Source of the DNA: Acholeplasma sp.
Lineage (GTDB): Bacteria; Bacillota_I; Bacilli_A; Acholeplasmatales; UBA5453
Direction: 5' to 3'
NCBI GenBank assembly: GCA_036677365.1
Contig: JAVBWN010000012.1
Span: forward strand, 96,001-160,000
DNA length: 64,000 nucleotides
Position numbers and translations under genes: made by a program. The notes beneath the pieces were generated by a model. That model worked only from the letters and a program-made list of their open reading frames with translations. It was not told the DNA's origin and made no database searches. Positions within the stretch are counted from its first letter, which is position 1; each line of letters opens with the position of its first letter. This document shows, piece after piece, positions 2,272-18,904 of this stretch.

Positions 2272-3434
2272 ATATAACAATCATAGGTTTGGGTTATATT
2301 GGGTTCCCAGTAGCGATAAAATTAGCGGAAGCTGGTTTTCACATTCATGGTTATGATATCGATAGTCAGAGAATACAGGATATAGAAACTGGTAATTTCA
2401 ACATACAAGAACCTGAACTATATGAAAGATATCATGCAGTAAAATCAAATTTATCCATATCGACTAAATTGGTTAAATCAAGTACATATATTGTTACAGT
2501 TCAGACACCAGTAGATCAAAATAATAAAGCCGATGTTAGTTATGTAAATAGAGCACTTCAAGACATTGGGAAGTTTTTGTCAAAAGGTGATTTGGTTATT
2601 TTAGAGTCCACTGTCCCACCATATTCAAATGAGGTTTTTCATGCGTATCTTTCTGAGATTTCTCAAATAAATATCAATGATTTCGATTATGCATACTGTC
2701 CTGAAACGATACAACCCGGCAATGTTTTTTATGAATTGTCAACCAATCCGAGAGTAATTGGAAGTATTAATGAGCGTGCCTTTAAGCGTACTGAGTTGAT
2801 ATATAGCAAACTCACCAAAGGTAAGATTACGCATACGAACTACATAACAGCTGAGCATGTCAAAATCATGCAAAATGCATATAGAGATTACGAGATTGCT
2901 TTTGCAAACGCATTATCGATTTATTGTGACCAACATCGAATGAATGTGTTTGAACTTATTGGTCTAATTAATCAACACCCAAGAGCGAAAGTGTTGAATC
3001 CTGGCGTTGGCGTTGGTGGTCATTGCTTACCCGTTGATACGTTATTCATTATTGAGAAATCGAGCTTCGAGCCAATCATATTTTCAAGAAACATGAACAA
3101 CCATAAAACAGACTATGTCGTTGAAAAAATAATGAGTCAAGCACCAAAAAAAGTTATCCTTTTTGGTGCTACTTATAAACCGAACTCTGATGATTTAAGA
3201 CATTCACCTAGCATTGAAATAGCAAATCAGTTGATAAGTATTAATATTGAGGTTCTCTTTTGTGAACCCAATATAAATCAAGAGTTTATCTATGGTATTA
3301 AGAACATAAAGTTTGATGAAGCAATTAAGATAAAATCTCTTAAAGTCATCACTCAAAAGCACGATGTTTTCATCAAGGGATATGACAATTTTGGAAAGAT
3401 TGATTTTATTGACTTTGTTGGACTAGATTCTTAA
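2268..3434 (+). CDS. wecC: UDP-N-acetyl-D-mannosamine dehydrogenase (nucleotide-sugar dehydrogenase)
   Basis: GLGYIG Rossmann motif, ESTVPP, YCPE, GVGGHCLPVD catalytic Cys, YKPNSDDLRHSP. Start moved to ATG 2268 (AGAGGAG RBS, ATGA overlap with wecB stop). Confidence 0.88.
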   Translation: MNITIIGLGYIGFPVAIKLAEAGFHIHGYDIDSQRIQDIETGNFNIQEPELYERYHAVKSNLSISTKLVKSSTYIVTVQTPVDQNNKADVSYVNRALQDIGKFLSKGDLVILESTVPPYSNEVFHAYLSEISQININDFDYAYCPETIQPGNVFYELSTNPRVIGSINERAFKRTELIYSKLTKGKITHTNYITAEHVKIMQNAYRDYEIAFANALSIYCDQHRMNVFELIGLINQHPRAKVLNPGVGVGGHCLPVDTLFIIEKSSFEPIIFSRNMNNHKTDYVVEKIMSQAPKKVILFGATYKPNSDDLRHSPSIEIANQLISINIEVLFCEPNINQEFIYGIKNIKFDEAIKIKSLKVITQKHDVFIKGYDNFGKIDFIDFVGLDS

Positions 3435-3602
3435 ATAGGTTGAAGATTAGCAGCCAAACATCTTTAAAAACTAGGATAATAGACACAAAGAACAATTTAA
3501 ATAGCAAGTCTATAAAAATTTAAATACAGCGATAAGATCAAATTTGGAATAAAAAATTTTTAATAAGTATAGGAGATATTATGTTATGAAAAATATATTA
3601 GC

Positions 3603-4076
3603 ATGTTCTTATTTATATTATTCTCAATGATATTGTTTGCATGCAACAGCTCGGAAACGAATAATGAAGTATTTGCAGTTGTTCATTACGATAATAGTAT
3701 GTGGAGTTCGACCAATGGTAAAATAATATTTGGTACATCTTCATTCTCTAGTTCTAAGCCTGTTTATTTTTATAACGAGAAAAAGAATGCGATTCAACTT
3801 CAGCCATCAAAAAATGGGAATATAATTAGCAATATTGATGCAGAATGGGAAAAGATTTTTTCAATTGAGTCGATAGGAATGCAACAAGTTTATTTTCTTA
3901 ATAATGTCACAAGTAAATATGAACTCATTAATGAAAATGAAATAGAGGTTTATAAAATTACAATACACACAGAAGCATCTTCAACGATTATTATTAATGA
4001 AATATTTGTTATAAGAGTCGAAGATATATCTGCATTTGAGTTTAATTATAAAGTTGAAGAATTAAAAGACAGATAA
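3603..4076 (+). CDS. Putative lipoprotein (start possibly frameshifted, see findings)
   Basis: Hydrophobic N-terminus ending in lipobox LFAC. Confidence 0.65.
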   Translation: MFLFILFSMILFACNSSETNNEVFAVVHYDNSMWSSTNGKIIFGTSSFSSSKPVYFYNEKKNAIQLQPSKNGNIISNIDAEWEKIFSIESIGMQQVYFLNNVTSKYELINENEIEVYKITIHTEASSTIIINEIFVIRVEDISAFEFNYKVEELKDR

Positions 4077-4228
4077 TTAAAATTAATCTTATTCTATCAA
4101 TATTCCAATAGCGAATAATACAATTGAGTAGCGTTCGTACTAACAGTTTATGAAAAGAGATCGAAAAAACATCGTAGTAAAATGTTACAAAATGTAATAC
4201 ATTTAACATAATAGGAAGAAGTGAGACA

Positions 4229-5317
4229 ATGGGTTATATAAACTACACATTAAAAGATAACGAAATTATTCAAAATAGATACGATTCCATGAAGCCTCTA
4301 AAAATAGGCATAAAGATAGTTGAACCAAAGTTGGATTGTGTATATTGTAAACTGGTATTCGACGATGCATTAAAACTTTATAATCATATTAAAAATGTGC
4401 ATAATGTGGTTAAACCTGTCACTATTGTTAATGGAAAAATACCCAGTCAATCTGGGGATTATTATATCGATCATGTCGATGAAGTTTTAGTTCTTATGTA
4501 TGGCAGTAAACAGATTGTGCTTATAGATAAACTAGTTCAAGAAACCTCAAGTGATACCTACAATCTAACAGAAATAATTAGAACTAGATTATCTCATAAT
4601 AGTGAAGTAATTTTATCGGTTGGAGATTTTTCGTTAAGAATCATTAAGTACAACATAGACTCGATTAAAAATCCAATCGTCCATGACACTATCAAACTGT
4701 GGAATCAAGCCACTTTTAACAATACACCGATTCGAATGATAAATACGGATGAACTTAATCATGCTGAAAAAAAATATATTGAAGCTTTTTATAACTATTT
4801 CATTGCATGTAATGCGAATGGTACAGATAAAGTGAATCGTTATATGGATGCGTATTCGAGACTTCAATCTTTCGAAACGATAAATACATTAGCGAAAACA
4901 ATTCTGAAAGTAATAGCGTTAAAGATGAATTGGATTGACCGTTTAGAACACTTGTCGTTTGAAGAGGATATCTTTAAGATACTTATTGATTTTTTTCACT
5001 TTAAGAATCCACAAATCAGGCTACAGGAATCAGGGCAAGAACAGTTATTTATCGAAAATGAATTAGAGATTCAAATTCGAACCATGCTTAACTTCATGCA
5101 AAGAAATAATGATGAAGTCAAAGCCTATGTCCATAACAAGGACTATTACTTAGATACTCAAGACATCAACGCTAAGGATCGAACATTATTCATACTATAT
5201 AGATATTTTCAATTGATTGAAAATTCTAAGAATGCATCTGGAATTATTGAAGCCTTTACAAGTGATACTCTACGTGAATTATGCAAAAATAACATGAATG
5301 AAATACAAGGAGGCTAA
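4229..5317 (+). CDS. Hypothetical protein with N-terminal C2H2 zinc-finger motif; gene 1 of Hsp70 operon
   Basis: CVYCKLVFDDALKLYNHIKNVH fits C-x2-C-x3-F-x5-L-x2-H-x4-H; overlaps the next gene. Confidence 0.75.
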   Translation: MGYINYTLKDNEIIQNRYDSMKPLKIGIKIVEPKLDCVYCKLVFDDALKLYNHIKNVHNVVKPVTIVNGKIPSQSGDYYIDHVDEVLVLMYGSKQIVLIDKLVQETSSDTYNLTEIIRTRLSHNSEVILSVGDFSLRIIKYNIDSIKNPIVHDTIKLWNQATFNNTPIRMINTDELNHAEKKYIEAFYNYFIACNANGTDKVNRYMDAYSRLQSFETINTLAKTILKVIALKMNWIDRLEHLSFEEDIFKILIDFFHFKNPQIRLQESGQEQLFIENELEIQIRTMLNFMQRNNDEVKAYVHNKDYYLDTQDINAKDRTLFILYRYFQLIENSKNASGIIEAFTSDTLRELCKNNMNEIQGG

Positions 5318-6428
5318 AGAAGTGAGTCAGAAAAAAAATAATAAAAAAGAAGTAGATGTATCCAATTTAATCGATGAAATTCAAGGGAAAGAATTAGCTC
5401 TAGCAATTTTAAATGATTCAAAAGCACCAACTAATATCGAAAAATTGATTGTGGACAACATCAAAAATAAGAGTCTTTCAATCCACGCTTTGAAAGCTGT
5501 TTTAGACGTGATTGATAATCGATTTAGATTGCATAAAATTAACATTCTATTAAAACTCTATACTGCTTTAAAAGATATTAAAACTAATGACATAACGGCA
5601 CATGACTTAATTCGAGCTTACATTTTAGATGCTGTAGTGACCATATTGGATGAGATTAAAAGTGAATACATTCATGAAGAGAATCAATCTTTTTTTACTA
5701 CTAACGGAGGGTTAAAATCTTTTTATGAGGATACCTTTAATAAAATGAGGTTTGCCAAAAATCTTGATTTTATTAGCCCTGCTAAGCAAAAAGATCAAAG
5801 TTTTAGATATAGTGCCATTATATGTTATATCTACAGCATGCTCTTTAATCACTTAGACACTATTACCAAGAAAAATGAACTTTATTGGCGAATTGACCGA
5901 ACTTTAGCTGAATTCTTTGCTGGTTTGACAGCCAATGATCAGTTTAAGTACATTGGAGATACTGTACTTAAAGCGTTAAATAGCAAAAATTTTAAGCAAG
6001 AACTTTCTAAACAAGTTCATTTATATGTAGCTGACCAAAATATCACTGAACTACTTATTAGTGATAAAGAAGAGTTGACAGAATCAGTTGTTAATCTTAA
6101 TAAGATGGTTACAACTTTAAAAATGAAAGTTATAGAATTAGAAACAACCAACCGCAGTTTGAATGCTGAAAATGCATTATGCAGGAAACAGAACGAATCA
6201 CTTAATGTAGAAATTAGTAAGGTGAACAATAGACTTGAATTTGAAATCAATAAGTTTGAGAAACAATACGAATCATTCAGGGAGAACGTATTATCTCAAA
6301 TTAAAAAAGATTTAGATTTAGAAATTTTAGGTGTTCGTGACATCATTGAACCTCTAAATGATGAAACGAAAGCTATGATTATTCGAAGACTTGGTCGAAT
6401 TGACAATATATTAAGTAAGAAAAACTAA
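5298..6428 (+). CDS. Hypothetical helical protein with C-terminal coiled coil; gene 2 of Hsp70 operon
   Basis: 376-aa ORF with heptad-rich C-terminal third. The true start may be the GTG a few codons downstream, behind AGGAGG. Confidence 0.75.
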   Translation: MKYKEAKEVSQKKNNKKEVDVSNLIDEIQGKELALAILNDSKAPTNIEKLIVDNIKNKSLSIHALKAVLDVIDNRFRLHKINILLKLYTALKDIKTNDITAHDLIRAYILDAVVTILDEIKSEYIHEENQSFFTTNGGLKSFYEDTFNKMRFAKNLDFISPAKQKDQSFRYSAIICYIYSMLFNHLDTITKKNELYWRIDRTLAEFFAGLTANDQFKYIGDTVLKALNSKNFKQELSKQVHLYVADQNITELLISDKEELTESVVNLNKMVTTLKMKVIELETTNRSLNAENALCRKQNESLNVEISKVNNRLEFEINKFEKQYESFRENVLSQIKKDLDLEILGVRDIIEPLNDETKAMIIRRLGRIDNILSKKN

Positions 6429-6439
6429 AGGAGCCCCTT

Positions 6440-7978
6440 ATGGCAAAGATAGGTATAGACTTTGGAACAACAAACTCGCTGCTTGTCGCATTTGATAAAG
6501 ACAAAAGAGAGTTTACTTATTTTAATTACATAGATAATACTCCCGTCCCAACATCCTCTACAGTATGGTATCACGATAATGATGTTGTTGTTGGTGATAT
6601 GGCTAGAGAAAAAATGTATCAATTATCAGGTGTAGATGGACATCACTTTGAACGATCGGTTAAGCTCAAGTTGGCCAATTCTGAATCGATTAATATCTTT
6701 GGTGAACGCGTTCAGCCACACAAGGTTGCAGGTCAAATTATTAATAAGCTTAAAGAAGATTCAATTCAAAAATATAAAGCAAATATTCTTGATATCGATT
6801 TAAATCGTGCTGTTTTTACCATACCAGTTAATTTTAGCGGCAAATCTCGAGAAGAGCTTAGACGTAGTGCCCATGAAGCTGGAATTGAAATTACAACTTT
6901 TATTCATGAACCGTTTGCCGCGATTGTTGCCTATTATTTTAATAAGTGTCATAAAAACCACACAAATGTTGTGCAAGAATTGGACCACTTAAACAGTCAG
7001 TACTTACTCACATTTGACTGGGGTGGAGGAACACTTGATATAACCGTTGTACAAATTGAAAATGGCAAAATATCAGAAAAAGGAACCTCAGAACTTACAA
7101 ACAGAGCAGGAGACAAATTTGATGAAGATTTAGCTCGTTATGTCTGGAGCAAATTTATCGATCAAAAAGGTAAAAAGTACAATCCTGAATACTTAGAAAA
7201 AATACGCATACAACGCTGGGGCCGATTGTTATCGATTGCTGAAAAATGTAAAATTCAGTTATCAACCGATATGCAGTCGGAGTTCATTTTGGAAAGAGTT
7301 ATGGAAAATGAAAATATTGATATCATCATTCATAGAGATGACTTCACCAAAATCATTGAAAGTACGGTGACAGATGCTCTAAACAAAATTGATGAAGCCT
7401 TAAAACAAGCTGGCATCAAAGACATAGATATTTCTAGTGTATTACTGATTGGTGGTACATGTAATATTCCAGCCATTCAAAAAGCCGTCACAAATAAATT
7501 TGGACACCGTGTTGTTACAGTAGAAAACCCTGAATTACTGATTGCACAAGGTGCAGCCATCATCTCTGAAATGGCATGGTTACCGGTCTTAACAAAAGAT
7601 ATCTTAGTTCAATTATCAGATGATTCTTATTACCCACTCTTTGAACGAAATCTGCCTATAGCCTCTAATATGAATGCAGTGAAGTCTGAAACATTTACGT
7701 GCGTTGACCATCGTGGAAAAAACGCAAAAGTAATCATTTGTGAAGGGTTAGATCAAGATGCACATAAAACTTTAGGTATTATTAATGTGCCATTATTGGG
7801 ACATGATTTGTTTGGCGACGATATTTTTGTAGAAGCTAAAATTAATCGAGATATTGTTTTGCATGTGAGTGGCTATAGCAAAATGTCGCAAGGACACAAA
7901 ACCCCAGAGCAACAGTATTCAGTTAGAAAATCTTGTGAAATCAACCAATTATGTTTTGGTTTAGACATTAAAAGGTGA
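6440..7978 (+). CDS. Atypical Hsp70-family ATPase (not housekeeping DnaK)
   Basis: IGIDFGTTNS, TIPVNF, HEPFAA, FDWGGGTLD, AEKCKIQLS, LIGGTCNIP. Short divergent C-terminus with no lid; no adjacent grpE/dnaJ. Confidence 0.9.
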   Translation: MAKIGIDFGTTNSLLVAFDKDKREFTYFNYIDNTPVPTSSTVWYHDNDVVVGDMAREKMYQLSGVDGHHFERSVKLKLANSESINIFGERVQPHKVAGQIINKLKEDSIQKYKANILDIDLNRAVFTIPVNFSGKSREELRRSAHEAGIEITTFIHEPFAAIVAYYFNKCHKNHTNVVQELDHLNSQYLLTFDWGGGTLDITVVQIENGKISEKGTSELTNRAGDKFDEDLARYVWSKFIDQKGKKYNPEYLEKIRIQRWGRLLSIAEKCKIQLSTDMQSEFILERVMENENIDIIIHRDDFTKIIESTVTDALNKIDEALKQAGIKDIDISSVLLIGGTCNIPAIQKAVTNKFGHRVVTVENPELLIAQGAAIISEMAWLPVLTKDILVQLSDDSYYPLFERNLPIASNMNAVKSETFTCVDHRGKNAKVIICEGLDQDAHKTLGIINVPLLGHDLFGDDIFVEAKINRDIVLHVSGYSKMSQGHKTPEQQYSVRKSCEINQLCFGLDIKR

Positions 7979-7983
7979 TTAGT

Positions 7984-8283
7984 ATGAAACAAAAATCCAA
8001 TATCAAAATCATATCGAACATTATGTTACAAGATAAATATAAAGTTTCACCATCCTCATTTGTTCCTTGGGAACTTTTAAGAAAAGAAGAAAGAGATGTT
8101 CGTTATCATCCAAACTTGACACCACACCAATTAAATCAATTAAAGAAGCACTTGTGGTATGCGAAGAGAATCGAAAATGATGACGGTACGGTGACAATAT
8201 TAAACGAAAATGCCGAAGTTATCAAAACAATAACCGAGGATGAATATTTGGTTCAATTGATTAATAAATCTGAACATATCTAA
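7984..8283 (+). CDS. Small hypothetical protein; gene 4 of Hsp70 operon
   Basis: ORF directly after the Hsp70 stop, with AAGGTG RBS; followed by a terminator. Confidence 0.65.
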   Translation: MKQKSNIKIISNIMLQDKYKVSPSSFVPWELLRKEERDVRYHPNLTPHQLNQLKKHLWYAKRIENDDGTVTILNENAEVIKTITEDEYLVQLINKSEHI

Positions 8284-8358
8284 TCAGTAGCAAAATGAGT
8301 CTAAATAGCAGCTTTCATGTGGTTTAGAGCTTGATTTCTGCTCCATATAAGAAGCATT

Positions 8359-8390
8359 AGTCTAATACAATTTGTATTAGGCTTTTTTCT
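8359..8390 (+). terminator. Rho-independent terminator of Hsp70 operon
   Basis: AGTCTAATACA-att-TGTATTAGGCT stem-loop plus T-run. Confidence 0.7.
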
Positions 8391-8646
8391 TATCAGAAAG
8401 GGGTAATTTTTCCTATCTGCCAATTTCCAGAACTCTAATTTGAATTGAAATCGGGGTTTTTAGAGGTCGAGTATTTTAGTGTTGCTTAACTATTTAACGA
8501 TTACCTAACAATCTACACGATTGTAAAAATATGAACATTAATTGATAAAAAATGATTACAACGTAGGATTGGATAAATTATAAACTATCTAATTTGATAA
8601 AATTGTGCTAAAATAGTGCATATGGTGTCCAAATCGAGGGAGTATT

Positions 8647-8838
8647 ATGAATTACGCATATTTAATAAAGAGATTACGAGAAAAACTTATATTATCACAA
8701 ACAGAGTTTGCTAAAATATTAGGTGTTTCTTTTACAACTGTATCAAGATGGGAAAAAGGAGTTCATGCCCCAACAATAAAGGTAAAAAGAAAAATAGTAG
8801 AGTTATGCAGAAATAATCAAATTGAGATGGAGGAATAG
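8647..8838 (+). CDS. XRE-family HTH regulator (controller-like) leading the type I R-M operon
   Basis: LSQTEFAKILGVSFTTVSRWEKG; 3 bp before hsdM. Confidence 0.88.
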   Translation: MNYAYLIKRLREKLILSQTEFAKILGVSFTTVSRWEKGVHAPTIKVKRKIVELCRNNQIEMEE

Positions 8839-8841
8839 ACT

Positions 8842-10479
8842 ATGGCAAAAGCAGTAAAAAAACAGAAAGAAGCAACTTTGGAGCAGGTACTATGGAATTG
8901 CCGAGTCGCTCTTCGTGGTTTTGGTAGTTTTGAGAAGAATAGAGATTCTATTATTGGACTTGCTTTTTTGAAGTTTGCAAGTGACAAGTTTGATAAAAGA
9001 AGACAAGAGATTATTGCAGAACACGGAAATATTCCTGTATTTTTAGAAAAGGTGTCCTTTTATAATTCGCAAAATGTGTATTATTTAGAAGAACATTGCA
9101 GATGGAGTCATATTGTTAAAAATGCAGGTGCGAATGATATAGCGGTTATCTTGGATAAGGCTATGAAAGATATTGAAGACAAAAATCCACCTTTAAAAGG
9201 AACACTTCCACAAAATGTATATACTTCACTTGGTGCTGATAAAAATGCTATGAAATCTTTAATTGATGAGATCAATAAAATTAATGAAAAAAGATTCCAT
9301 GAAGAAGATTTAATTGGTAGAGTATATGAATACTTTCTTCAGAACTTTGCTGCATCTGCTAGCAAAGAAGATGGAGAATTTTATACACCTGCATGTGTGG
9401 TCCAGTTAATTGCTGAACTTATAGAGCCTTTTGATGGAATTGTTTATGATCCATGTTGCGGCTCTGGTGGCATGTTTGTACAATCAATGAAGTTTGTAGA
9501 TAATCATAAAGGAAATAGGAAAAAAGTCTCAATCGTTGGTCAAGAGAAAACTCCAGAAACATGGAGACTGGCTAAAATGAACTTAGCTATTAGGGGTATT
9601 GCACATAACCTAGGACAAAAGAATGCTTCAACATTTACTGAAGATCAGCATCAGGATTTGATAGCTCAATACATTATGGCTAATCCACCATTTAACCTTA
9701 AAAATTGGAGAGGTGAAGATGAGCTTTTGGATGATGCAAGATTTTATCAATACAAACCAGCTATACCTCCGAAATCAAACGCAAATTATGCATGGATTTT
9801 ACATATGCTCTCAAAACTTGATGTAGAAAAAGGAATTGCAGGGTTCTTGCTTGCAAATGGAGCACTAAATGCAGGTTCAAGTGGAGATGAAGATGATGAT
9901 GACAGTGGACAGGATCAATATCTTATCCGTAAAAAAATACTTGATAATGATAAAATTGAGGCCATAATTGTCCTACCAAGAGATATGTTCTATACTACTG
10001 ATATATCAGTTACATTATGGATTTTAAACAATAACAAAAAAGCAAGGACATTGAATGGCAGACAATTACGTAATCGAACTAATGAAGTTTTATTTATTGA
10101 TCTAAGAACATGGAATGAAAACATTGAAGAATATACAATAGATAAAGGAAAGAAAAAGAAAAAGACAATTTTATCGACAAAGCAAATTCAAAATGTTGTT
10201 AGAATTTATCGAGACTGGCAATCTGTTGATTGTGCTAATCCAAAAAAATACAACGTACCAGAACTTTATAGTTCCGTTTATTTAAGTCAAATTCAAGAAA
10301 AAAATTACAGTTTAATACCAAGTGAATATATCGAATTCATAGACCATGATTTAGAGATTGATTTTGAGCAAGAGATGAAAAGAATTCAAAAAGAAATGAA
10401 AGAGATTCTAGAACAAGAAAAGAAATCTCAAAAATTGCTTGAGGATGCATTTGAAGGTATAGGATATGGCATTAAATAA
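8842..10479 (+). CDS. hsdM: Type I R-M N6-adenine methyltransferase subunit M
   Basis: GEFYTP, YDPCCGSGG (motif I) and ANPPF (motif IV). Confidence 0.95.
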   Translation: MAKAVKKQKEATLEQVLWNCRVALRGFGSFEKNRDSIIGLAFLKFASDKFDKRRQEIIAEHGNIPVFLEKVSFYNSQNVYYLEEHCRWSHIVKNAGANDIAVILDKAMKDIEDKNPPLKGTLPQNVYTSLGADKNAMKSLIDEINKINEKRFHEEDLIGRVYEYFLQNFAASASKEDGEFYTPACVVQLIAELIEPFDGIVYDPCCGSGGMFVQSMKFVDNHKGNRKKVSIVGQEKTPETWRLAKMNLAIRGIAHNLGQKNASTFTEDQHQDLIAQYIMANPPFNLKNWRGEDELLDDARFYQYKPAIPPKSNANYAWILHMLSKLDVEKGIAGFLLANGALNAGSSGDEDDDDSGQDQYLIRKKILDNDKIEAIIVLPRDMFYTTDISVTLWILNNNKKARTLNGRQLRNRTNEVLFIDLRTWNENIEEYTIDKGKKKKKTILSTKQIQNVVRIYRDWQSVDCANPKKYNVPELYSSVYLSQIQEKNYSLIPSEYIEFIDHDLEIDFEQEMKRIQKEMKEILEQEKKSQKLLEDAFEGIGYGIK

Positions 10480-11587
10480 GTATAAATTAGGTGAATTAGT
10501 AGAAAAAACAGATGAAAGGAACACGAATTTAAGTTTTGGCATTGTCGATGTTAAGGGTATGACTATATCTAAAGAAATTATCTCTACTAAAGCTAATGTT
10601 GATCAAATAGATCTAAGTAAGTTTAAGATTGTTCATCCAAATGAATTTATTTATAACCCTAGAACCCATGGAAAGAAGATTGGTTTAGGATATAATGATA
10701 CAAAAAAATCGTTTATAATTAGCTGGAATAATATTGCCTTTAGAATAAAGGATGAAGCATCAAACAAGGTGCTTCCTAGTTATCTTTACATGCACTTCAT
10801 TCGTTTAGAATGGGACAGAGAAGCCACCTATAGATCATGGGGAAGTTCAACTGAAGTATTTTCATGGGATGCTTTATGTTCGATGGAGTATGAATTCCCA
10901 GAAATAAGTGTTCAGCAAAAATATGTTGATATATATAATGCTTTACTCAAAAATCAAATGGCCTATGAAGCAGGATTGGAAGATCTCAAGCTTGTTTGTG
11001 ATGCATGCATAGAAGACTTAAGAAAAAATATACCTTTAAGAACAATCGAACCATTTGTACATAGGATTGATGTGAGAAATGGTAGAGAAGGATCAAAAAA
11101 TGTCATGGGAGTTAGTACGACAAAAGAATTTCGTGAGCCTACTTCAAAAGTCAATAAAGAAAATCTTAACAATTATAAAGTAGTGAAACCAAGACAAATT
11201 TCCTTCGTTCAAACAACACACAACGAAAAGGTGTTTTGTAATGCCTTAAATAATACAAATGAACCTATAGTAGTAACTTCTGTAAACGAAGTAATCGAAT
11301 GCGACGAGAGATATTTATTACCAGAGTTTTTGGTTATGTTTTTTAATCGAACTGAATTCGATAGATATGCAAGATTTCATTCATGGGGATCAGCAAGAGA
11401 AACCTTTACATGGAATGACTTAGTTAGAGTTAAGATACCTATTCCTAGAATTAGTATTCAAGAATCTATAGTAAATATTTTCACAGCATATAGACTACGC
11501 AAACAAACTAATGAAAAATTCAAATTTTTAATCAGAAATATTTCCCCAATTTTAATTAAGGGATCAATAGAAGAAGCAAGATTATAG
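10466..11587 (+). CDS. hsdS: Type I R-M specificity subunit S
   Basis: Two-repeat TRD architecture, each ending in P-x-I-S-x-Q; lies between hsdM and hsdR. Confidence 0.9.
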   Translation: MALNKYKLGELVEKTDERNTNLSFGIVDVKGMTISKEIISTKANVDQIDLSKFKIVHPNEFIYNPRTHGKKIGLGYNDTKKSFIISWNNIAFRIKDEASNKVLPSYLYMHFIRLEWDREATYRSWGSSTEVFSWDALCSMEYEFPEISVQQKYVDIYNALLKNQMAYEAGLEDLKLVCDACIEDLRKNIPLRTIEPFVHRIDVRNGREGSKNVMGVSTTKEFREPTSKVNKENLNNYKVVKPRQISFVQTTHNEKVFCNALNNTNEPIVVTSVNEVIECDERYLLPEFLVMFFNRTEFDRYARFHSWGSARETFTWNDLVRVKIPIPRISIQESIVNIFTAYRLRKQTNEKFKFLIRNISPILIKGSIEEARL

Positions 11588-11598
11588 GAGGTATCCAA

Positions 11599-14500
11599 AT
11601 GGATTCTGTGCTTGAAAAAGGTAAATTTTCTGAAGATGAGCTAGAATATGCTTTTATAGAATTATTCGAGCAATTAGGTTATGAATATCTTCTTGGTGAA
11701 TCAATCCATAGACATTTTAAGGATGTCCTACTTTATAATGATCTTAAGACTTATTTAAAATGCAGATATACTGATATTACTGACAATGAGATTGAAAGAG
11801 CAATCAGTCTATTTGAAAATATTTCATCCTTCCCTTTGTACGATGGTAATCGTGCTACTTATAAGATGATAACTGAGGGGTATGATTTAGTCAGAGATGA
11901 CGTATCTAAAACTGCACTTCATATCGATTACATCGATTTTGATAAAGATCATAACAATAATATTTACAAGATTATAAATCAGTACACTGTTGAAGATTTA
12001 CATAATCGTAGACCTGACTTACTGGTTTTTATCAATGGTATTCCTATTGTTATTTTTGAGTTCAAAACTGCTATTGAAGAGGACAAAACTATTCATGATG
12101 CATGGAAGCAAATACATGTAAGATATTCAAGAGATATCCCTAACTTATTGAAATATTGTACAATTTCAATCATTAGCGATGGTGCAAACACAAAACTTGG
12201 TACTATTTTTACACCTTATCAGTTTTACTATTCTTGGAACAAAATAAATGAAGAAGATAAGGTTTCAAATGGGATAAACTCTTTATATACTCTAATGCAT
12301 GGTGTTTTTGCTAAAGATCGATTATTATCGATTTTAAGAGATTTTATTTTCTTTCCTGATGACAGTAAAAAAGAAGAAGCGATTATTTGTAGATATCCTC
12401 AATATTTTGCATCCATGAAAATGCTTAAAAGCATAAAAATGCATAAAAAACCTGAAGGCGATGGCAAAGGTGGTATTTATTTTGGAGCAACAGGCAGTGG
12501 GAAAACTTATTCAATGTTATTTCTTACTCGTCAATTGATGCTGAGAGAAAAAAATGTCTTTCAAAACCCTACTATCATATTAATTACTGATAGAGAGGAT
12601 CTAGACTCACAAGCATCAAAATTATTTGTCACTGCAAAAAAATATTTTCATGATAATAATGTTAGAAGCATTGAAAGTCGACAGGATTTACAGGATACAT
12701 TAACCAGTCAAGAAAGTGGTGGTGTATATATAACAACAATTCAGAAATTCTGCGAGAGTACAGGGCTCCTTTCGAATAGAAGCAATATAATATGCATATC
12801 AGATGAAGTTCATAGATCAAATACAGGTGTAGGAGCTAAACTTAAGAAAACTGAGAACGGTATATACACTTCGTATGGATATGCGCATTATTTACGAGAA
12901 AGTCTTCCAAATGCCGTTTACTGTGGGTTTACAGGAACACCTATAGATGAAGCAATAACAGTATTTGGGAAAGTTGTTGATAGTTATACGATGAAAGAAT
13001 CTAGTGATGATGGTATTACAGTACGAATTGCATATGAGCCAAGACTTGCTAGAGTTCTTCTATCTGATAAAGATGCAAAAGATATTGAAAAATACTATAA
13101 AGAATGTGCAGAACAAGGGTCGAATCCTGAGCAAATTGAAGAAAGCAAGAGAGCCATGAGCAGGATGACGACAATTCTAGGACATCCTGATAGAATAAAG
13201 AAATTAGCAAAAGATATTGTTGTACATTATGAATCAATATGTAACGAAAAACCAGAAATTGTTCAAAAAGCAATGATTGTATGCTCTGATAGAACAATAG
13301 CTTTAAAGGTCTATAAAGAAATCACTTCAATTAGACATGATTGGCTTATTGCTAAAAAAACTGAAAATCCAAGTAGATATACGAGTGAAGAACTTGAAAT
13401 GCTAGTTGAAGTCCCTAAAATCAATCTCGTGGCTACACGTGGCGATAATGATGAAAAAGAATTATACGACTTGTGCGGCACCAAAGATTATCACAAGTTT
13501 CTTGATGATCAATTCAAAAATACTGATTCGAATTTCAAAATTGCAATTGTTGTAGATATGTGGATTACTGGTTTTGATGTACCTTCTTTAGCGGTGATGT
13601 ATATAGATAAGCCACTTCAAAAACATACATTGATTCAAACTATTTCACGTGTAAATCGTGTTTTTGAAGGAAAAGACAAAGGGTTAATTGTTGATTACAT
13701 TGGAATAAAAGATGAAATGATGGAAGCCATCAAAATATATGGTGGCCCACAAGAAAGCCCTATAGATGAGATTAATATATCAGTTGGTATTTTTAGAAAC
13801 CATCTTAAAATCATTGACGACATTATGATTAACTTCAATGCTACCGATTTTTATGCGGGCAGTCCATTAAAAAGGTTACATTGTCTTAATCGAGCAGCTG
13901 AATTTGTACAAACATCAAAAGAGATTGAAACAAGATTTATGGGGCTTACACGAAAACTTAAAGCGGCATATAACATAATATCCCCATCGGGAGAAGTAAC
14001 CGATCAAGAAATAACCAGAGCGCAGTTCTATTTAGCAATTAGATCAATAATTTATAAACAAACAATAGGAAATGCTCCAGATGCAGAAATCATGAACCAG
14101 ATTGTTGAAGAGATGGTTAAAAATGCTATTTCAGTGACTGGTATTGAAAATATTACTGATGAGAACAAGTCTATAGACTTATTTAGTGAGGTATTTTTAA
14201 AGCAGATAAATTCACTTAAGATGCCTATTACTAAGTTTAACGCTTTAATGAAGTTGTTAAAGCGAGCCATATCTAATTATGGGAAGGTAAACAAGGTAAA
14301 ATCTCTCGAATTTGATGAAAGATTGAGGAGAGTTGTTGAGGCGTATAACACTAGAGACAAATTAGTCTTTACTAGTGAAGTCGTCGCTGATTTTGTGAAT
14401 GATTTATCGAACGAACTTATCAAAATATTCCAAGATTTAAATGAAGATAAGACATCATTCGAGAAAATGGGTATAAGCTATGAAGAAAAAGCATTCTACG

Positions 14501-14760
14501 ATATATTGGTGAAAGTTAGAGATGTACATCAGTTTGTTTTTGAAGATGAAAAATGTATTAATCTTGCAAAGAAGATTAAAGAATTAGTTGATGATAAACT
14601 TCAATATGCTGACTTTTTTAATCGGGCTGACATTAAGAACCAACTCAATATGGATTTAACTATTATCTTGTATAAAAATGGATATCCACCTGAGTGGGAT
14701 GAAGAAGTTTTTGAAAAAGTTATGCAACAAGCAGAGAATTTTAAAAAGTATATAGTTTAA
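11599..14760 (+). CDS. hsdR: Type I restriction endonuclease subunit R
   Basis: RRPD...IFEFK nuclease motif, ATGSGKT, DEVH, GFTGTP, MWITGFD, QTISRVNR. Confidence 0.95.
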   Translation: MDSVLEKGKFSEDELEYAFIELFEQLGYEYLLGESIHRHFKDVLLYNDLKTYLKCRYTDITDNEIERAISLFENISSFPLYDGNRATYKMITEGYDLVRDDVSKTALHIDYIDFDKDHNNNIYKIINQYTVEDLHNRRPDLLVFINGIPIVIFEFKTAIEEDKTIHDAWKQIHVRYSRDIPNLLKYCTISIISDGANTKLGTIFTPYQFYYSWNKINEEDKVSNGINSLYTLMHGVFAKDRLLSILRDFIFFPDDSKKEEAIICRYPQYFASMKMLKSIKMHKKPEGDGKGGIYFGATGSGKTYSMLFLTRQLMLREKNVFQNPTIILITDREDLDSQASKLFVTAKKYFHDNNVRSIESRQDLQDTLTSQESGGVYITTIQKFCESTGLLSNRSNIICISDEVHRSNTGVGAKLKKTENGIYTSYGYAHYLRESLPNAVYCGFTGTPIDEAITVFGKVVDSYTMKESSDDGITVRIAYEPRLARVLLSDKDAKDIEKYYKECAEQGSNPEQIEESKRAMSRMTTILGHPDRIKKLAKDIVVHYESICNEKPEIVQKAMIVCSDRTIALKVYKEITSIRHDWLIAKKTENPSRYTSEELEMLVEVPKINLVATRGDNDEKELYDLCGTKDYHKFLDDQFKNTDSNFKIAIVVDMWITGFDVPSLAVMYIDKPLQKHTLIQTISRVNRVFEGKDKGLIVDYIGIKDEMMEAIKIYGGPQESPIDEINISVGIFRNHLKIIDDIMINFNATDFYAGSPLKRLHCLNRAAEFVQTSKEIETRFMGLTRKLKAAYNIISPSGEVTDQEITRAQFYLAIRSIIYKQTIGNAPDAEIMNQIVEEMVKNAISVTGIENITDENKSIDLFSEVFLKQINSLKMPITKFNALMKLLKRAISNYGKVNKVKSLEFDERLRRVVEAYNTRDKLVFTSEVVADFVNDLSNELIKIFQDLNEDKTSFEKMGISYEEKAFYDILVKVRDVHQFVFEDEKCINLAKKIKELVDDKLQYADFFNRADIKNQLNMDLTIILYKNGYPPEWDEEVFEKVMQQAENFKKYIV

Positions 14761-14800: not shown

Positions 14801-14963
14801 GTATAATTTTACTAAATACCCGAACTTTTACCCTTTTTTTGCGGACTTAGATTTGTAGGAGAATAAATTCTTTTCAATGCTACCGGCAAAACAAACTATA
14901 TCTTGCCATTTAAATATAGAAGGGAATGGAACAACTTACAAATTAAGGAAAGAGGTATTTACA

Positions 14964-16046
14964 ATGGATAAGAATAAAAAGAGTTCTATTGAGTGGGAAG
15001 ATGATGAAGACGATGGTCTACCAAGAATAGTTTCGGTTGCAGAATTTTTGGATAATCCATCTAAACTGCCTGAAGAAGTTATTGAAAGCGTTGTGCGTCA
15101 AGGACACAAAATGATGATCTCAGGTGCTTCAAAGTCTGGTAAAAGTTTTTTATTGATTGAATTGGCTATTGCACTAGCAGAGGGAACAAAGTGGCTTGGG
15201 TTTCAATGTAGAAAATCTAAGGTAATGTACATTAACTTGGAGATCGATCGCAATAGTCTTATTCATCGGTTTATTGACATCTATCAAGCGTTAGGTATCA
15301 AACCGAAGAACGCACATTGTATTTCCATTTGGAATTTAAGGGGATCCTCCAAACCACTCGATGACTTAATACCAGAACTTATCCAAAAAACAACTCTCAC
15401 AGGTGCTGATGTGGTTATTTTAGATCCTATCTTCAAAGTGATGATGGGTGATGAGAACAATGCAACCGATATGGCCAATTTAACCAATCTCTTTGACAAG
15501 ATTTGTTATGAGACTGGATGTACATTTGTCTATAGTCATCACCACTCCAAAGGAGCTCAAGGTTTCAAAAAATCAATGGATCGTGCATCTGGATCTGGTG
15601 TTTTTGCTAGAGATGCTGATGCCCAGGTGGATATGATTCAACTCAATCTTGTTGAAGTTTCATCACGTCATAACCCAGAAGAATCATCAGCGACTGCTTG
15701 GCGACTAGAAAGTAGTCTAAGAGAATTTCGAAGCTTTAACCCCGTTAACATATGGTTTGATTATCCAATACATAGAGTGGATGAAGCGGGAAAACTTAAG
15801 AAGAATTATGCTGATGGAGATCCGAGAGCTAACCTTACCAGAAGTTATAAACGAAATCAGACGACTGATTCGCGTAAAGAGGAATTTGATAAAGCATTTG
15901 ATACCAATAAGAGGAAAGATGGAACCTGTTTTGCCTTTGTACTTGCAGAGTATTTAGGGATTGCTGAAAGAACTTTTAGAGATCGAGTCATAGAATTCAG
16001 TGATGATTATGTCAATAAAAAAGGTATCGTATCACGTAAAAAGTGA
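14964..16046 (+). CDS. RepA-like / AAA_25 RecA-fold replicative helicase of mobile-element origin
   Basis: GASKSGKS Walker A, YINLE, ILDP Walker B, HHHSKG, RASGSGVFARD, likely C-terminal HTH. Start at ATG 14964 after AAGGAAAGAGG. Confidence 0.85.
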   Translation: MDKNKKSSIEWEDDEDDGLPRIVSVAEFLDNPSKLPEEVIESVVRQGHKMMISGASKSGKSFLLIELAIALAEGTKWLGFQCRKSKVMYINLEIDRNSLIHRFIDIYQALGIKPKNAHCISIWNLRGSSKPLDDLIPELIQKTTLTGADVVILDPIFKVMMGDENNATDMANLTNLFDKICYETGCTFVYSHHHSKGAQGFKKSMDRASGSGVFARDADAQVDMIQLNLVEVSSRHNPEESSATAWRLESSLREFRSFNPVNIWFDYPIHRVDEAGKLKKNYADGDPRANLTRSYKRNQTTDSRKEEFDKAFDTNKRKDGTCFAFVLAEYLGIAERTFRDRVIEFSDDYVNKKGIVSRKK

Positions 16047-16127
16047 AGTTGGAAGATAGGGAGAAATGAAATTTCGTCACGATTTCCTGAATTTGGCAGA
16101 AAGGATAAAAACACCTATCTTCCAACT
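16047..16127. repeat. 14-bp perfect inverted repeat AGTTGGAAGATAGG / CCTATCTTCCAACT
   Basis: Arms at 16047-16060 and 16114-16127, immediately after the helicase stop. Confidence 0.85.
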
Positions 16128-16176
16128 ACCAAAAAAACTGGCGGATAGGCCTTATATAGTTGGATGTAACCAACAC

Positions 16177-16320
16177 GCTAACGCATGTTTGTAGGATAGG
16201 GCTTGAAAGCCTGCCCTATCCCAAACAATGCATTATCGTTAGCACTCACCTTTCTTCCAAAGAAAAAACCAGAAAAAGTAAAAAACTGGTTAGCAATTAC
16301 AATTATTTCTGTGAGTTTCA
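16177..16320 (+). repeat. Structured intergenic element, copy A (long hairpin 16177-16243 plus conserved tail)
   Basis: GCTAACG..GTTTGTAGGATAGGGC / GCCCTATCCCAAAC..CGTTAGC; aligns by eye with about 17763-17903. Confidence 0.75.
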
Positions 16321-16422
16321 TTAAATAGAGTTATGATAATCATCCCAAGCTAATAAATCCAAAATAACCTAATTAAAGTAATCATTGTTTGATATAATGT
16401 TTATAAAAGTGGGTGGTAGAGT

Positions 16423-16953
16423 ATGATAAAATTTCTAGATTATGTTGGAGATAAGGAGCAATTTGAAACGAAACTTATAAACTCTTGTAAAGATGGACTA
16501 AAGGCGAAAACGAAATTGATATATATTAAAAAACCTATAATAGAAGACAATAAATATGTCCTAAATTGCGAACAAAGTGAAATTATTGTCAATGATGAAT
16601 GTTCAATCAGTGGTAAGAGTAATGGCTATGTTTATGCAATATTTGATAAAGATGAGAAATTTTTATATATTGGAAGTACTCAAAAATTAAAAGAACGACT
16701 AAAACAACATTTGATTGCAAATCCAAGCTTTCATGTTGATAAGGAAAAAGCTAAAACATCAAGTAAAACTCATTCAAAGATTAATAAAGTTTTCGAACAT
16801 TTAAAAAATCTCTCTCTCAAGGAAAACAGAGTTCTCATGTATGGATACTTTAAAGTTGAACCGTGGTATTATTACACAGCAATTGAAAGTCTCCTAATTG
16901 AGAAAGTTCCTACAGCCTGGAACGATAGGGGAACCCCCCCAACTGGAGAATAG
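16423..16953 (+). CDS. GIY-YIG nuclease family protein
   Basis: GYVY-x10-YIGST, ERLKQH, downstream E and WN. Confidence 0.8.
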   Translation: MIKFLDYVGDKEQFETKLINSCKDGLKAKTKLIYIKKPIIEDNKYVLNCEQSEIIVNDECSISGKSNGYVYAIFDKDEKFLYIGSTQKLKERLKQHLIANPSFHVDKEKAKTSSKTHSKINKVFEHLKNLSLKENRVLMYGYFKVEPWYYYTAIESLLIEKVPTAWNDRGTPPTGE

Positions 16954-17102
16954 TTATGTATGTGGGTACCGACCGACGTCTATTTCATTTATTAGATAAT
17001 TTTTTGAGAAAATCTGGATATTTGAACTGGTAACATAAAAGTAGACATCACCAGAATTATAAAAAGATATTAATGATTTGTAATGTATTCAAAGAGGTTG
17101 CT

Positions 17103-17404
17103 ATGAAATACGCTAATGTACAACGAATAGACCTGTAAAAAAAATCTATCCATGAGTGATCAATGTCGTAGAAACACCTGAGCAGTATGATATCAATAAT
17201 TTACCTTTGGTAAACGTCGATAGTGAAATACAAAATAGCAGTATTAAATCGAAGCATGCTACCCTAGATGAACTCGGGAGATTATCAAAACAACAGTTAA
17301 TCATGGAGGTCATTAAAGCAAGTATTGAGGCTGAAAGAGAAAAAAGGCATCGCAATAACAAAAACTTAGAAGTTAAAAATACGGGAGGATATAAATATGA
17401 TTAA
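17103..17404 (+). pseudogene. Degraded small HTH protein resembling IS3/IS150-type OrfA
   Basis: AGAGG RBS and ATG 17103 (MKYANVQRIDL), then a stop and frameshift in an A8 run, continuing as ...LSKQQLIMEVIKASIEAEREK. Resemblance is from memory. Confidence 0.35.
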
Positions 17405-17717
17405 AAACAATAAACCATTTACAAATGAAAATGGTTGGGAAGATAGCGAACTAATCAGTGACCTATCATTAGAAAAGCAAGAGATTGTTTTGAACTGGAT
17501 AAAAAGTGGATTTATTCCAAGAAAAACAGAGAATCGCTCTCACTCAAGTTATGGTTTGAAACATTATCTGCAAGATGAAACAGGTATTTATCTTACGAAC
17601 AATCAATTTAAAGATGCTATGATGATTTGTGGATTCTATACTAAAGATCCTAACAAACTCAATTGGCACTATGGTATCAGTGAGAAATCACCAGTTTTTT
17701 TGAGAAATAAAAATTAA
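17397..17717 (+). CDS. Hypothetical mobile-element protein (SYGLKH motif, possible winged helix)
   Basis: GGGAGG RBS; SSYGLKH...YLTNNQFKDAM...GF. Confidence 0.7.
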   Translation: MIKNNKPFTNENGWEDSELISDLSLEKQEIVLNWIKSGFIPRKTENRSHSSYGLKHYLQDETGIYLTNNQFKDAMMICGFYTKDPNKLNWHYGISEKSPVFLRNKN

Positions 17718-17762
17718 AAACACACTGTTATAAAAGCCGTATACATAATTGTTATCAGCAAA

Positions 17763-17903
17763 CACAGACGAATTATTGTAGATTTGGGCTGATAACCTTT
17801 CCTTATCACATACACATGCATCAACGTCAGCACTACCTTTCTTCACAAAAAATTCAAAAAAGTAAAAACCGGGTTGCAATTACCATTAATTTAGTTCGTT
17901 TCA
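17763..17903 (+). repeat. Structured intergenic element, degenerate copy B
   Basis: CATGCATCAACGTCAGCACTACCTTTCTTC...AAAAAGTAAAAACCGGGTTGCAATTACC matches copy A AATGCATTATCGTTAGCACTCACCTTTCTTC...AAAAAGTAAAAAACTGGTTAGCAATTACA. Confidence 0.75.
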
Positions 17904-17970
17904 AATTCTTAAACACCAATCATTAAGTATCGATCATTTGGTATAATTGAATCAAGTGAGGTGGCAAAAT

Positions 17971-18387
17971 GCACATTTGGTTAAAAGAAGAAAAAATCTA
18001 TTAGTACTGATGCATGACCTCTCTCAATTTACACTAGTTTTCTATGGAGTTAAGTAAAGCTACTTAAAAGAGTTTGATCAAATGATTAGTGTTGCAATGG
18101 CAAATAGTATGATGGATGTTGGATTCATACCTGAAAAAATCAGTGCATATCTTAATCATCAACTAGAAGCAATGACATTTAGTAAAACAAAAAGTAGAAC
18201 CTTGGTAACCAAATTAAATAAGGCTGTTTAAATGAAAGATCATGTATTAAGCACTGATGATTTTCATGAAGATGCTATTGAACAACGCCATGCAAGTTTA
18301 TTTAACAATCAGCTGCTCGTTTGCGAAGACAAGAATAAAATTTGTTATTATCCAAAAGAAAAACTGCGAGAATATATCGAAATTTAA
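17971..18387 (+). pseudogene. Pseudogene, DUF6933-like, 5'-deleted with two in-frame stops
   Basis: One frame reads AHLVKRRKNLLVLMHDLSQFTLVFYGVK*...TFSKTKSRTLVTKLNKAV*...YYPKEKLREYIEI*. Confidence 0.55.
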
Positions 18388-18534
18388 GATGTTGTAGACA
18401 CTAAAATGTCACCAACATCTTTTTTCCTCTTTCGAAAAGTTCAAATTCGTTTTAAGACTAGGTTTTTATTTAACGATTTTCATGTTACTATTAAAGTGGA
18501 TTAAACAATATAATAGGACTTGAGGACAATTCAA

Positions 18535-18827: not shown

Positions 18828-18904
18828 ATCCTGTCATAATATACGATTGTAGACATAAATAATATATTAGATATATAACAATATTATGCTTTGTATAAAT
18901 CACT

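Follow-up and report, generated by a model that had tools for sequence, protein, structure and literature searches.

Hsp70 proteins have been predicted in a few conflict systems, and the texts of the papers concerned report no experimental test of a system centred on an Hsp70. In the CoCoNuTs (type III McrBC-related systems), which are also reported in superoperons with type I restriction-modification (R-M) and BREX, the Hsp70-like proteins CnuD and CnuCD, with a nucleotide-binding and a substrate-binding domain, are described in the text of Bell et al. (eLife 2024, PMC11090510), CnuD working there with an NxD GTPase resembling McrB and with an McrC homolog of the DUF2357 family, and carrying HEAT-like repeats and degenerate Walker A-like motifs. 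The GTPase-centric conflict systems in the text of Kaur et al. (eLife 2020, PMC7159879) include DO-GTPase/tubulin/Hsp70 sets as well as GAP1-N2 sets with Hsp70 and GrpE, and are defined there by TRAFAC GTPases, tubulin homologs, GrpE, and FNIII proteins fused to DnaJ or TPR. A lidless DnaK-like domain (~50% identical to DnaK) is described as fused to EACC1-protease modules (PMC12642450), and in the toxin-antitoxin-chaperone (TAC) systems a SecB-like chaperone is described as guarding a classical antitoxin, with a chaperone-addiction peptide (10.1101/2024.02.24.581848). The locus analysed here is a cassette of four genes (O1 to O4, O3 being a lidless Hsp70) in a window of 64,000 nt of Acholeplasma sp. 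contig JAVBWN010000012.1, where the window is the whole stretch of DNA that was analysed and all coordinates without a locus prefix are window positions. Its gene set is found in none of these systems as they are described.

Like the CoCoNuTs, the cassette contains an Hsp70-family unit of nucleotide-binding and substrate-binding domains that has been taken into a predicted defence system, but its ATPase motifs are invariant and no McrB, McrC, HEPN or HEAT component was found in it; neither the open reading frames (ORFs) of the window nor the flanks of the cassette loci gave a match to McrB, DUF2357 or HEAT. With the GTPase-centric systems it shares an Hsp70 paralog in a predicted multi-gene conflict system, whereas the TRAFAC GTPase, tubulin, GrpE and the DnaJ- or TPR-fused FNIII proteins by which those are described are all absent from it. 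The EACC1-linked DnaK-like domain is reported to be without a lid, as O3 is. The likeness to TAC is a works-like analogy only (i.e. a dedicated chaperone that holds a short peptide of its partner could sense a flood of foreign or unfolded protein), and compared to both TAC and EACC1 modules the cassette is without a SecB, toxin, antitoxin, protease or effector domain. As far as these uses of Hsp70 in conflict systems (CnuD, GTPase-centric, EACC1) are described, they come without the C2H2/TPR-like protein, without this coiled-coil protein and without the O4 tail.

Compared to DnaK-DnaJ-GrpE, the nucleotide-binding and beta substrate-binding core and the invariant ATPase residues are the same in O3. 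However, O3 is without the helical lid, is only 24-26% identical to DnaK (tblastn) and scores far below the equivalog cut-offs, it is encoded with a C2H2/TPR-like protein, a protein with a coiled coil and a small tail protein as its partners, and it is an accessory rather than a universal gene. The E. coli protein HscC is a non-canonical, specialised Hsp70 that works with the J-proteins DjlB and DjlC. The cassette resembles it in that a specialised Hsp70 paralog is encoded together with its own cofactors, but while HscC uses J-domain partners, no J domain was found in the cassette: Pfam gave no J-domain or GrpE match in O1, O2, O4, 24 O2 homologs or 16 O1 homologs, although DnaJ and GrpE of the host could act in trans. 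The original prediction for this DNA could not place the cassette in any named system, and nor could we: O1, O2, O3 and O4 matched 0 families each in PADLOC v2.0.0 (2023) at E ≤ 0.01 (a later release may name it), and no description of such a cassette was found in the full-text literature on Hsp70 or DnaK-like proteins in anti-phage defence, conflict systems and BREX (supplements aside). Hsp70 and DnaK go unmentioned in the BREX survey of 2026 (PMC12839542) and in the DefensePredictor paper (PMC13092281), again supplements aside.

The cassette is real and widespread, has no name in PADLOC v2.0.0 or in the literature searched, and is built on a known protein family. Its four genes are co-conserved. 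Metagenome contigs were scanned with a pattern for a 12-residue family-specific Hsp70 motif, which yielded 50 loci that were analysed through ORF calls and iterative hidden Markov models (HMMs); 29 of the 50 are non-redundant and have an Hsp70 of the family (E < 1e-170). Where these 29 leave 2400 bp or more upstream, O1 was found every time (13 of 13). The position of O2 is occupied by a gene in all 17 with 1200 bp or more (12 recognised via HMM, five by position and size only), and O4 lies downstream of the Hsp70 in all 22 with 300 bp or more on that side, with gene order and strand identical throughout. The four genes are thus kept together in the same order, and this co-conservation holds for Hsp70 identities down to ~30%. 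Among the weaker-scoring Hsp70-like loci with room for it, O1 was found in 0 of 32.

A scan of species-representative genomes with the Hsp70 alignment gave 80 loci among the matches listed, with relatives 24-34% identical. Of these 80, 11 carry O1 upstream of the Hsp70, with a gene of 340-450 amino acids (aa) between the two. Three carriers are metagenome-assembled genomes (MAGs) of an Elusimicrobia, a 'delta proteobacterium' and a Verrucomicrobia member, and eight belong to the Pseudomonadota: a Burkholderiaceae MAG, an unclassified MAG, Roseovarius salincola, Ruegeria lacuscaerulensis, Pseudomonas iridis, another Pseudomonas, Parasalinivibrio latis and an Endozoicomonas MAG. In a FastTree phylogeny of 112 Hsp70-like proteins, all 38 cassette-labelled rows cluster in a single group with SH-like support of 90. 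This group has 41 rows in total, and the three without a label are contigs too short to show neighbours.

Some variants were seen around this group. In the Elusimicrobia locus (L003:1515-4453) two tandem Hsp70 paralogs of 487 and 490 aa follow a short O1-like ORF and a 338-aa middle gene. A sister clade (L015-L028, L086, L087, L125) comprises 13 Hsp70-like proteins of 470-780 aa without O1 and O4; several of its members have a conserved gene of their own, of more than 300 aa, directly upstream, so that a second undescribed cassette with an Hsp70 may exist here. Among the control loci, that of Streptomyces lucensis (L064:9075-13743) has a different Hsp70-like gene, from a different clade of the tree, beside two LeoA/LeoBC-type dynamin-like GTPases, an arrangement that fits the GTPase-centric Hsp70 systems of Kaur et al. 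2020.

The flanks of the cassette loci, annotated with PADLOC and Pfam, are rich in defence genes. The cassette lies inside a BREX operon in L010 (BrxC-PglX-cassette-PglZ-BrxL) and inside a type I R-M operon in L012 (HsdM-HsdS-cassette-PDC-M72A/B-PDC-S11-HsdR). It follows Hma genes in L009 (HmaB-HmaC-cassette) and L005 (HmaB-x-HmaC-cassette-PDC-S39), and BrxL in L132 (PglZ-BrxL-cassette-MkoA-like helicase) and L112 (BrxL-cassette-PDC-S06). Wadjet genes lie upstream in L011 (JetC-JetD-cassette-PDC-M16A/B), BrxABC and a phospholipase effector in the vicinity in L008, a ZorD/DpdE-like helicase upstream in L013, a type IIG enzyme upstream in L004 and L103, and a type II restriction enzyme downstream in L006, while L119 and L091 have type I R-M downstream, the same as the window. 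Other neighbours are GmrSD (L089), a KAP NTPase with a Schlafen-type helicase (L123), ToxN, PBECR3 and HEPN/NTase pairs (L100) and an MqsA-like antitoxin (L090). Genes of mobile elements are found beside the cassette as well: a Mu-type transposase in L088/L107, a MobL relaxase in L115 and an IS200 transposase in L122.

At the centre of the cassette stands O3, which matches the Pfam model HSP70 (PF00012) over residues 4-442 with an E-value of 2.6e-51 (175 bits vs a cut-off of 20.6). An alignment of 33 family members shows no variation at residues D7, K75, E157, D193, G195-G197, T198, D200 and G338-G339; they are presumably equivalent to the catalytic residues of DnaK. The ATPase site of O3 is intact as judged from these residues, and the ATPase motifs recognised in the original prediction are kept in all 33 members. 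Family-specific positions in the C-terminal 130 residues are invariant in the 33 members as well. The family profile aligns with residues 5-481 of DnaK from G. kaustophilus (2v7y), i.e. from the nucleotide-binding domain through the linker to the end of the span that holds the beta substrate-binding domain, and O3 is built in the same order, its linker being hydrophobic. What is absent is the alpha-helical lid (SBD-alpha) and the C-terminal tail: O3 ends at residue 512, right after the beta domain, and its Pfam match stops at profile position 444 of 599. The C-terminus that was described earlier as short and divergent thus turns out to be a beta substrate-binding domain that lacks its helical lid.

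The family is large, with more than 100 listed clusters of O3 homologs at 48-64% identity over the full length, most of the full-length ones being 500-533 aa long. The NCBIfam equivalog cut-offs for DnaK, HscA and PRK11678 are far above the scores of O3, which are 156.5 vs 822.55 bits for TIGR02350, 156 vs 708.55 for TIGR01991 and 49.3 vs 331 for PRK11678, the nearest 'molecular chaperone' model. A structural model of a proteobacterial homolog (one of the fused forms discussed below) matches DnaK chains at a Foldseek E-value of 1e-36, and 5obu, which is DnaK without SBD-alpha, at 1e-35.

The fourth gene links the Hsp70 to a co-encoded partner. From GTG, the O4 ORF runs over 7975-8283 (102 aa), but the likelier start is the ATG at 7984, which has an AAGGTG Shine-Dalgarno sequence 7-8 nt upstream and agrees with the N-termini of homologs, and which results in a protein of 99 aa. 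In an alignment of 17 homologs the N-terminus has a conserved, strand-like motif of alternating S-N and hydrophobic residues, followed by a PGD-like motif whose proline is invariant and by a helix with a conserved T-x-x-Q. The C-terminus varies: many O4 homologs have four cysteines in it, but the copy in the window has none. A profile search of PDB with O4 returned nothing.

In seven proteobacterial loci (L006-L010, L012 and L013) O4 is fused to the C-terminus of the Hsp70. These Hsp70s measure 590-647 aa, with a low-complexity linker between the Hsp70 proper and the additional C-terminal tail. The tails of all seven are matched by the O4 HMM, with E-values of 7e-7 to 0.01 (in a search of 10 sequences with filters off), and the aligned tails carry the O4 motifs in register with the free O4 proteins. 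Since the two are separate genes in some lineages and fused in others, it seems that the products of O4 and the Hsp70 gene act together, for which natural fusion is good evidence. The suggestion made at first, that the Hsp70 acts on co-encoded partners, is thereby strengthened for O4, while the other partners gained no such support. In the fused proteins the conserved strand of O4 is, moreover, flexibly tethered beside the lidless substrate-binding domain. The two closely related Pseudomonas cassettes differ in this respect, as the Hsp70 of L010 (L010:6992-8782) has 596 aa including a fused O4-like tail, whereas that of L011 (L011:6992-8533) stops at 513 aa without the tail and no separate O4 was detected there; this may be a truncation.

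In O1 an N-terminal motif is followed by a C2H2 finger (residues 37-58). A domain rich in beta structure comes next (~60-141), and then a TPR-like domain of helical repeats (~146-362). Its assignment as a C2H2-finger protein, already made from the single sequence, is borne out by the family: the ligands C37, C40, H53 and H58 (C-x2-C-x12-H-x4-H) are invariant in an alignment of 16 homologs that are only 14-31% identical, and the finger profile matches classical C2H2 fingers in PDB, among them Aart 2i13 (E-value 1.4e-9), ZBTB7A, CTCF and Zif268. Residues 34-60 fit the classical pattern C-x2-4-C-x12-H-x3-5-H, and in the model they form two short strands and a helix (47-58). Pfam recognises domains in a minority of the family only, i.e. 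zf-Di19 in 3, zf-C2H2 in 2 and TPR_8 in 2 of 16.

The AlphaFold2 (AF2) model of O1 has a predicted local distance difference test score (pLDDT) of 80.1 and a predicted template modelling score (pTM) of 0.71, with region 146-362 being all-helical. TPR proteins top the VIA list for this region with Z scores of 6-7.4, values that the tool rates as within chance for helical models, and the Ig-like sandwiches found for residues 58-141 at Z ~6.5 lie within its stated noise range. Foldseek found nothing at E ≤ 1e-3 for the O1 model in PDB, no catalytic motif is conserved in O1, and look-ups in the atlas gave weak C2H2 and coiled-coil leads only, all below 0.9. O1 is a fast-evolving protein: a word-based homolog search found only a 98% twin, and its family emerged via HMMs made from the genes adjoining Hsp70 homologs and an exhaustive profile search. 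In the exhaustive library this family counts 203 clusters at E ≤ 1e-30 and 682 at E ≤ 1e-10; these counts are used because the one at E ≤ 1e-3 (8167) is inflated by eukaryote zinc-finger arrays.

O2 is helical in its N-terminal part, continues as a coiled coil of ~100 residues and has a conserved helical motif at its C-terminus; like O1, it shows no catalytic motif. Its homologs are very divergent, with 8-21% identity to the protein of the window, and it matches coiled-coil entries only, both in Pfam and in the PDB profile search, in line with its first description as a coiled-coil protein. The additional idea that it might be an exchange factor found no support in the sequence, with GrpE detected in 0 of 24 O2 members (Pfam) and only coiled-coil matches in PDB. 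The middle genes of the proteobacterial cassettes are related to O2: hhalign gave a probability of 97.9% (E-value 4.5e-13) over the C-terminal 121 columns, a score that the coiled-coil composition may inflate.

The distribution of the cassette is patchy. O1 is present in 0 of 9 genomes of the same genus, a single marginal match (E-value 3.7e-4) was found among the 60 relatives searched, and the C-terminal domain of O3 occurs in 1 of 401 sampled genomes of the phylum, that one being the window's own. In public runs of three other studies (X4, X7 and X9) the cassette is found at 90-99% identity from ~4042/4179 to ~8400, with 8641-9174 uncovered. A 1173-nt contig of X9 consists of 938 nt of unlike sequence followed by a match to the window from 4179 onwards, and contigs of other runs depart from the window sequence at 8370, 8402 and 8427. 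The edges are called from these contigs that continue with unlike sequence, since the uncovered stretch 8641-9174 alone is no proof of absence. With borders at 4179 and 8370-8427, the R-M system must lie outside, and the mobile unit, as read from these sequences, is O1-O4 with 50 bp upstream and the terminator. A motif pattern scan of a viral contig collection gave 0 matches, and tblastn against 50,697 phage and 72,556 plasmid records found no relative above ~30% identity, i.e. DnaK-level similarity only.

The region 8107-8640, which comprises the end of O4, the terminator and the spacer behind it, shows a summed contig depth of 482 and 187 in X4, vs ~30 for the cassette, and of 114 and 157 in X7, vs ~20 for the cassette. 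A contig of X9 joins the window at 8343 to a sequence resembling the 3' end of a tRNA. Because of this join and of a depth far above that of the cassette, part of 8107-8640 may be a shared or repeated element, which is single-copy in the window's own genome.

Taken as a whole, the cassette appears to be a discrete unit that moves horizontally and encodes a self-contained Hsp70 machine. This machine would run with neither a J-protein nor GrpE and is most likely directed against phages or other mobile DNA, and the cassette is probably an autonomous defence or conflict module of this general kind. The original prediction of a candidate new defence or conflict system is in this way supported by co-conservation, by the defence context and by the absence from PADLOC v2.0.0, and none of the three outcomes that it named as refuting was observed. 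We infer the defence function from context, that is, from the location in defence islands, the patchiness and the modular mobility. PADLOC matches (E ≤ 1e-10) make up 31 of 71 flank proteins and occur in 10 of 11 cassette loci, compared to 9 of 125 flank proteins and 4 of 11 loci for the non-cassette Hsp70-like controls of the same scan, an enrichment that is an indication rather than a statistical test because the loci are few and partly related, with control loci that are related too and few independent lineages. Five of the nine control matches are to the SspA/DndA model and are read as IscS-type housekeeping cysteine desulfurases.

Several observations weigh against a defence module, the limits of the enrichment just named among them. 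No effector domain (nuclease, toxin, pore or NADase) was found in O1-O4 with Pfam, NCBIfam, PHROGs, PADLOC or PDB profiles. No defence gene is present in the available flank at L085, L093, L114, L116, L117, L128 and L129: the neighbours are an AraC-type regulator, an M23 peptidase and a GDSL lipase in L093 and rpsB, tsf and glycogen synthase in L114, and L116, L117, L128 and L129 have uncharacterised genes only. The flank of L085 (L085:1-6320) holds an ATP-dependent ligase/WGR protein, an SRAP peptidase and an ImuB-like/DnaE2-like pair, a set of genes for mutagenesis and repair and not for classical defence. Of the ~23 metagenome groups with a scanned flank ORF, nine have R-M, BREX, type IV, toxin-antitoxin or PDC genes and three have mobile-element genes only. 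As for the Hsp70-O4 pair, the AF2 model of the fused protein of L007 leaves the linker (512-540) at a pLDDT below 50 and the tail at 45-71, while the Hsp70 part is confident, so that the docking of O4 in the binding cleft stays a prediction.

How such a module would work can be sketched in steps, any one of which, taken by itself, is unlikely to be right. O1 would be the sensor or adaptor, its finger and TPR-like solenoid recognising foreign nucleic acid or protein and delivering it to the Hsp70, and O2 would serve as a dimeric coiled-coil scaffold or as a cofactor of the nucleotide cycle. The N-terminal strand of O4, linker-tethered in the fused forms, might be a built-in pseudo-substrate or regulator of the lidless cleft. 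Infection would then shift the equilibrium and alter what the cleft of the Hsp70 holds, after which ATP-driven clamping or remodelling could either block a factor on which the phage or the host depends or activate a neighbouring system. In its most specific form, which is quite unlikely, the lidless and J-independent Hsp70 would be immune sensor and effector in one: the O4 strand would fill the cleft, O1 would capture an early phage protein (e.g. an anti-restriction protein) or a nucleic acid-protein complex, and the ATPase would clamp or unfold the capture, a chaperone-based, non-suicidal immunity without toxin or nuclease that would stop the infection and shield the neighbouring R-M, BREX or Hma system.

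A related but different possibility is that the cassette is not autonomous, but an accessory or guard of restriction based on DNA modification (type I and type IIG R-M, BREX, Hma), which assembles or regulates the complexes, or senses or neutralises phage anti-restriction proteins. PrrC, embedded in a type I R-M operon, is a precedent for such a guard module. The positions of the cassette between PglX and PglZ (L010), between HsdS and HsdR (L012), directly after BrxL (L112, L132) or HmaC (L005, L009), and beside type I R-M (window, L091, L119) or type IIG enzymes (L103, L004) all agree with it, and the nearest neighbour is a methyltransferase-based system in at least 12 of ~30 annotated loci. 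However, since R-M and BREX operons occur more often than any other defence system and are known hot spots for the insertion of unrelated systems, such adjacency is expected of any gene of a defence island. Moreover, the partner varies (type I, IIG, BREX, Hma, Wadjet, a Zorya/Dpd-like helicase, or none), the near-identical cassette in other metagenomes is without the R-M flank of the window, and no methyltransferase system adjoins the cassette in the visible flanks of L011, L013, L123, L100 and L114, so a guard role is possible but unlikely.

That the cassette could be cargo serving a mobile element, either as a stability or addiction module (with a logic like that of toxin-antitoxin-chaperone systems) or as an anti-defence device, is suggested by its sharp edges and its movement between contexts, and by the copies beside a MobL relaxase (L115), a Mu-type transposase (L088/L107) and an IS200 transposase (L122). 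A chaperone acting on a short conserved peptide of a small partner might also, by analogy, recall the chaperone-addiction peptide described for TAC (10.1101/2024.02.24.581848). Nonetheless, no toxin or antitoxin fold is recognisable, the fusion of O4 to the chaperone in many lineages is ill-suited to a labile antitoxin, the viral contig scan gave 0 matches and the phage and plasmid records no relative above ~30%, and most copies are chromosomal, amid host defence genes, all of which makes a cargo function distinctly unlikely. Some Hsp70 paralogs, HscA and HscC for example, have clients of their own and are a precedent for yet another role, that of a specialised housekeeping or stress chaperone set for particular clients without any part in conflict, and the neighbours of L114 and L093 are indeed housekeeping genes only. 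Such a role is very unlikely indeed in view of the extreme patchiness (1 of 401 genomes of the phylum, 0 of 9 of the genus), the fast divergence of O1 (14-31%) and O2 (8-21%), with many rows in the low teens, vs 48-64% for the Hsp70 among close homologs, the context dominated by defence islands and the canonical DnaK that the genome already has.

The cassette is compact (~4.2 kb), self-contained and located inside textbook defence operons, without a recognisable killing domain, and its carriers include culturable strains of Pseudomonas, Ruegeria, Roseovarius and Parasalinivibrio. If it does protect against phages, it would show an ATP-driven chaperone acting as an immune sensor or effector. 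It would then provide a testable model, with natural fused and split forms of Hsp70 and O4 and with invariant zinc-finger ligands and ATPase residues for mutation, and it would supply a missing model to defence-finder tools.

In the window itself, the four genes are co-directional on the + strand and overlap or abut, spanning 4229-8283 in the ORF listing (Table 1). The start of O2 overlaps the end of O1 by 20 nt, and the gap between O2 and O3 is 11 nt. A terminator-like hairpin at 8359-8383, with an 11-bp stem and a 3-nt loop, followed by a T run, is one of only four such sites in the 5.5 kb scanned; ORF listing and hairpin together agree with the view, taken from the start, of four overlapping or abutting genes closed by one terminator. 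Promoter-like hexamers are present at 4184-4212 and 4203-4230, but as such hexamers are no commoner than in shuffled sequence (34 found vs 30.1 ± 6.1 in shuffles, i.e. not above chance in this AT-rich region), no promoter is named. An Rfam scan of 3000-9500 gave no match. In a metatranscriptome run (X13), contigs at 4125-4363, 5072-5429, 6503-6657, 7686-7932 and 8100-8370 touch all four genes and end at the terminator; carry-over of DNA is possible, hence they are not counted as evidence of transcription.

Table 1. Features of the Hsp70 cassette and its edges (window positions)
Feature	Position	Strand	Basis
Left edge of mobile unit and probable promoter region	4179..4228	+	X9 contig matching the window only from 4179 on
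O1, C2H2-finger protein, 362 aa	4229..5317	+	ORF listing, homolog alignment, PDB profile match
O2, coiled-coil protein, 376 aa	5298..6428	+	ORF listing, constant position between O1 and Hsp70
O3, lidless Hsp70, 512 aa	6440..7978	+	Pfam HSP70, DnaK profile alignment
O4, 99 aa from ATG (102 aa if GTG 7975 is used)	7984..8283	+	Homolog alignment, Shine-Dalgarno
Intrinsic terminator, right edge of mobile unit	8359..8393	+	Hairpin scan and contig break points

No DnaJ or GrpE domain was found with Pfam among the 28 ORFs of the window that were scanned (a specific HrcA model search was not made), and no match to the CIRCE operator with up to 3 mismatches exists anywhere in it, as had been noted at the outset for dnaJ, grpE and CIRCE. 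The canonical dnaK of the same genome is located on another contig (818 bits to PF00012).

Downstream of the cassette, the type I R-M system reported earlier is present and complete, with a helix-turn-helix (HTH) protein (8647-8838), HsdM (8842-10479), HsdS (10466-11587) and HsdR (11599-14760). The defence island extends past it, over 14877-31089, and includes a 389-aa AAA_25 protein that resembles the C-terminal half of the phage primase/helicase family phrog_2597 (E-value 1.5e-128), a GIY-YIG protein, and a 1505-aa MkoA-like helicase (PADLOC E-value 2.7e-90) followed by uncharacterised proteins of 717 and 371 aa. In its distal part are a ClpB-like AAA_2 protein matching PDC-M37B, a small radical-SAM protein and a NERD+UvrD protein.

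Upstream of the cassette are polysaccharide genes (GT4 glycosyltransferase, UDP-GlcNAc 2-epimerase and UDP-glucose dehydrogenase) and a 157-aa ORF (3603-4076). This ORF was considered as a fifth member of the cassette and ruled out, with 0 HMM matches in the 50 metagenome loci. It gave no match in Pfam, PADLOC or PHROG, its N-terminus is lipoprotein-like, and a 90%-identical copy of it is present in run X4, at a greater depth than the cassette there.

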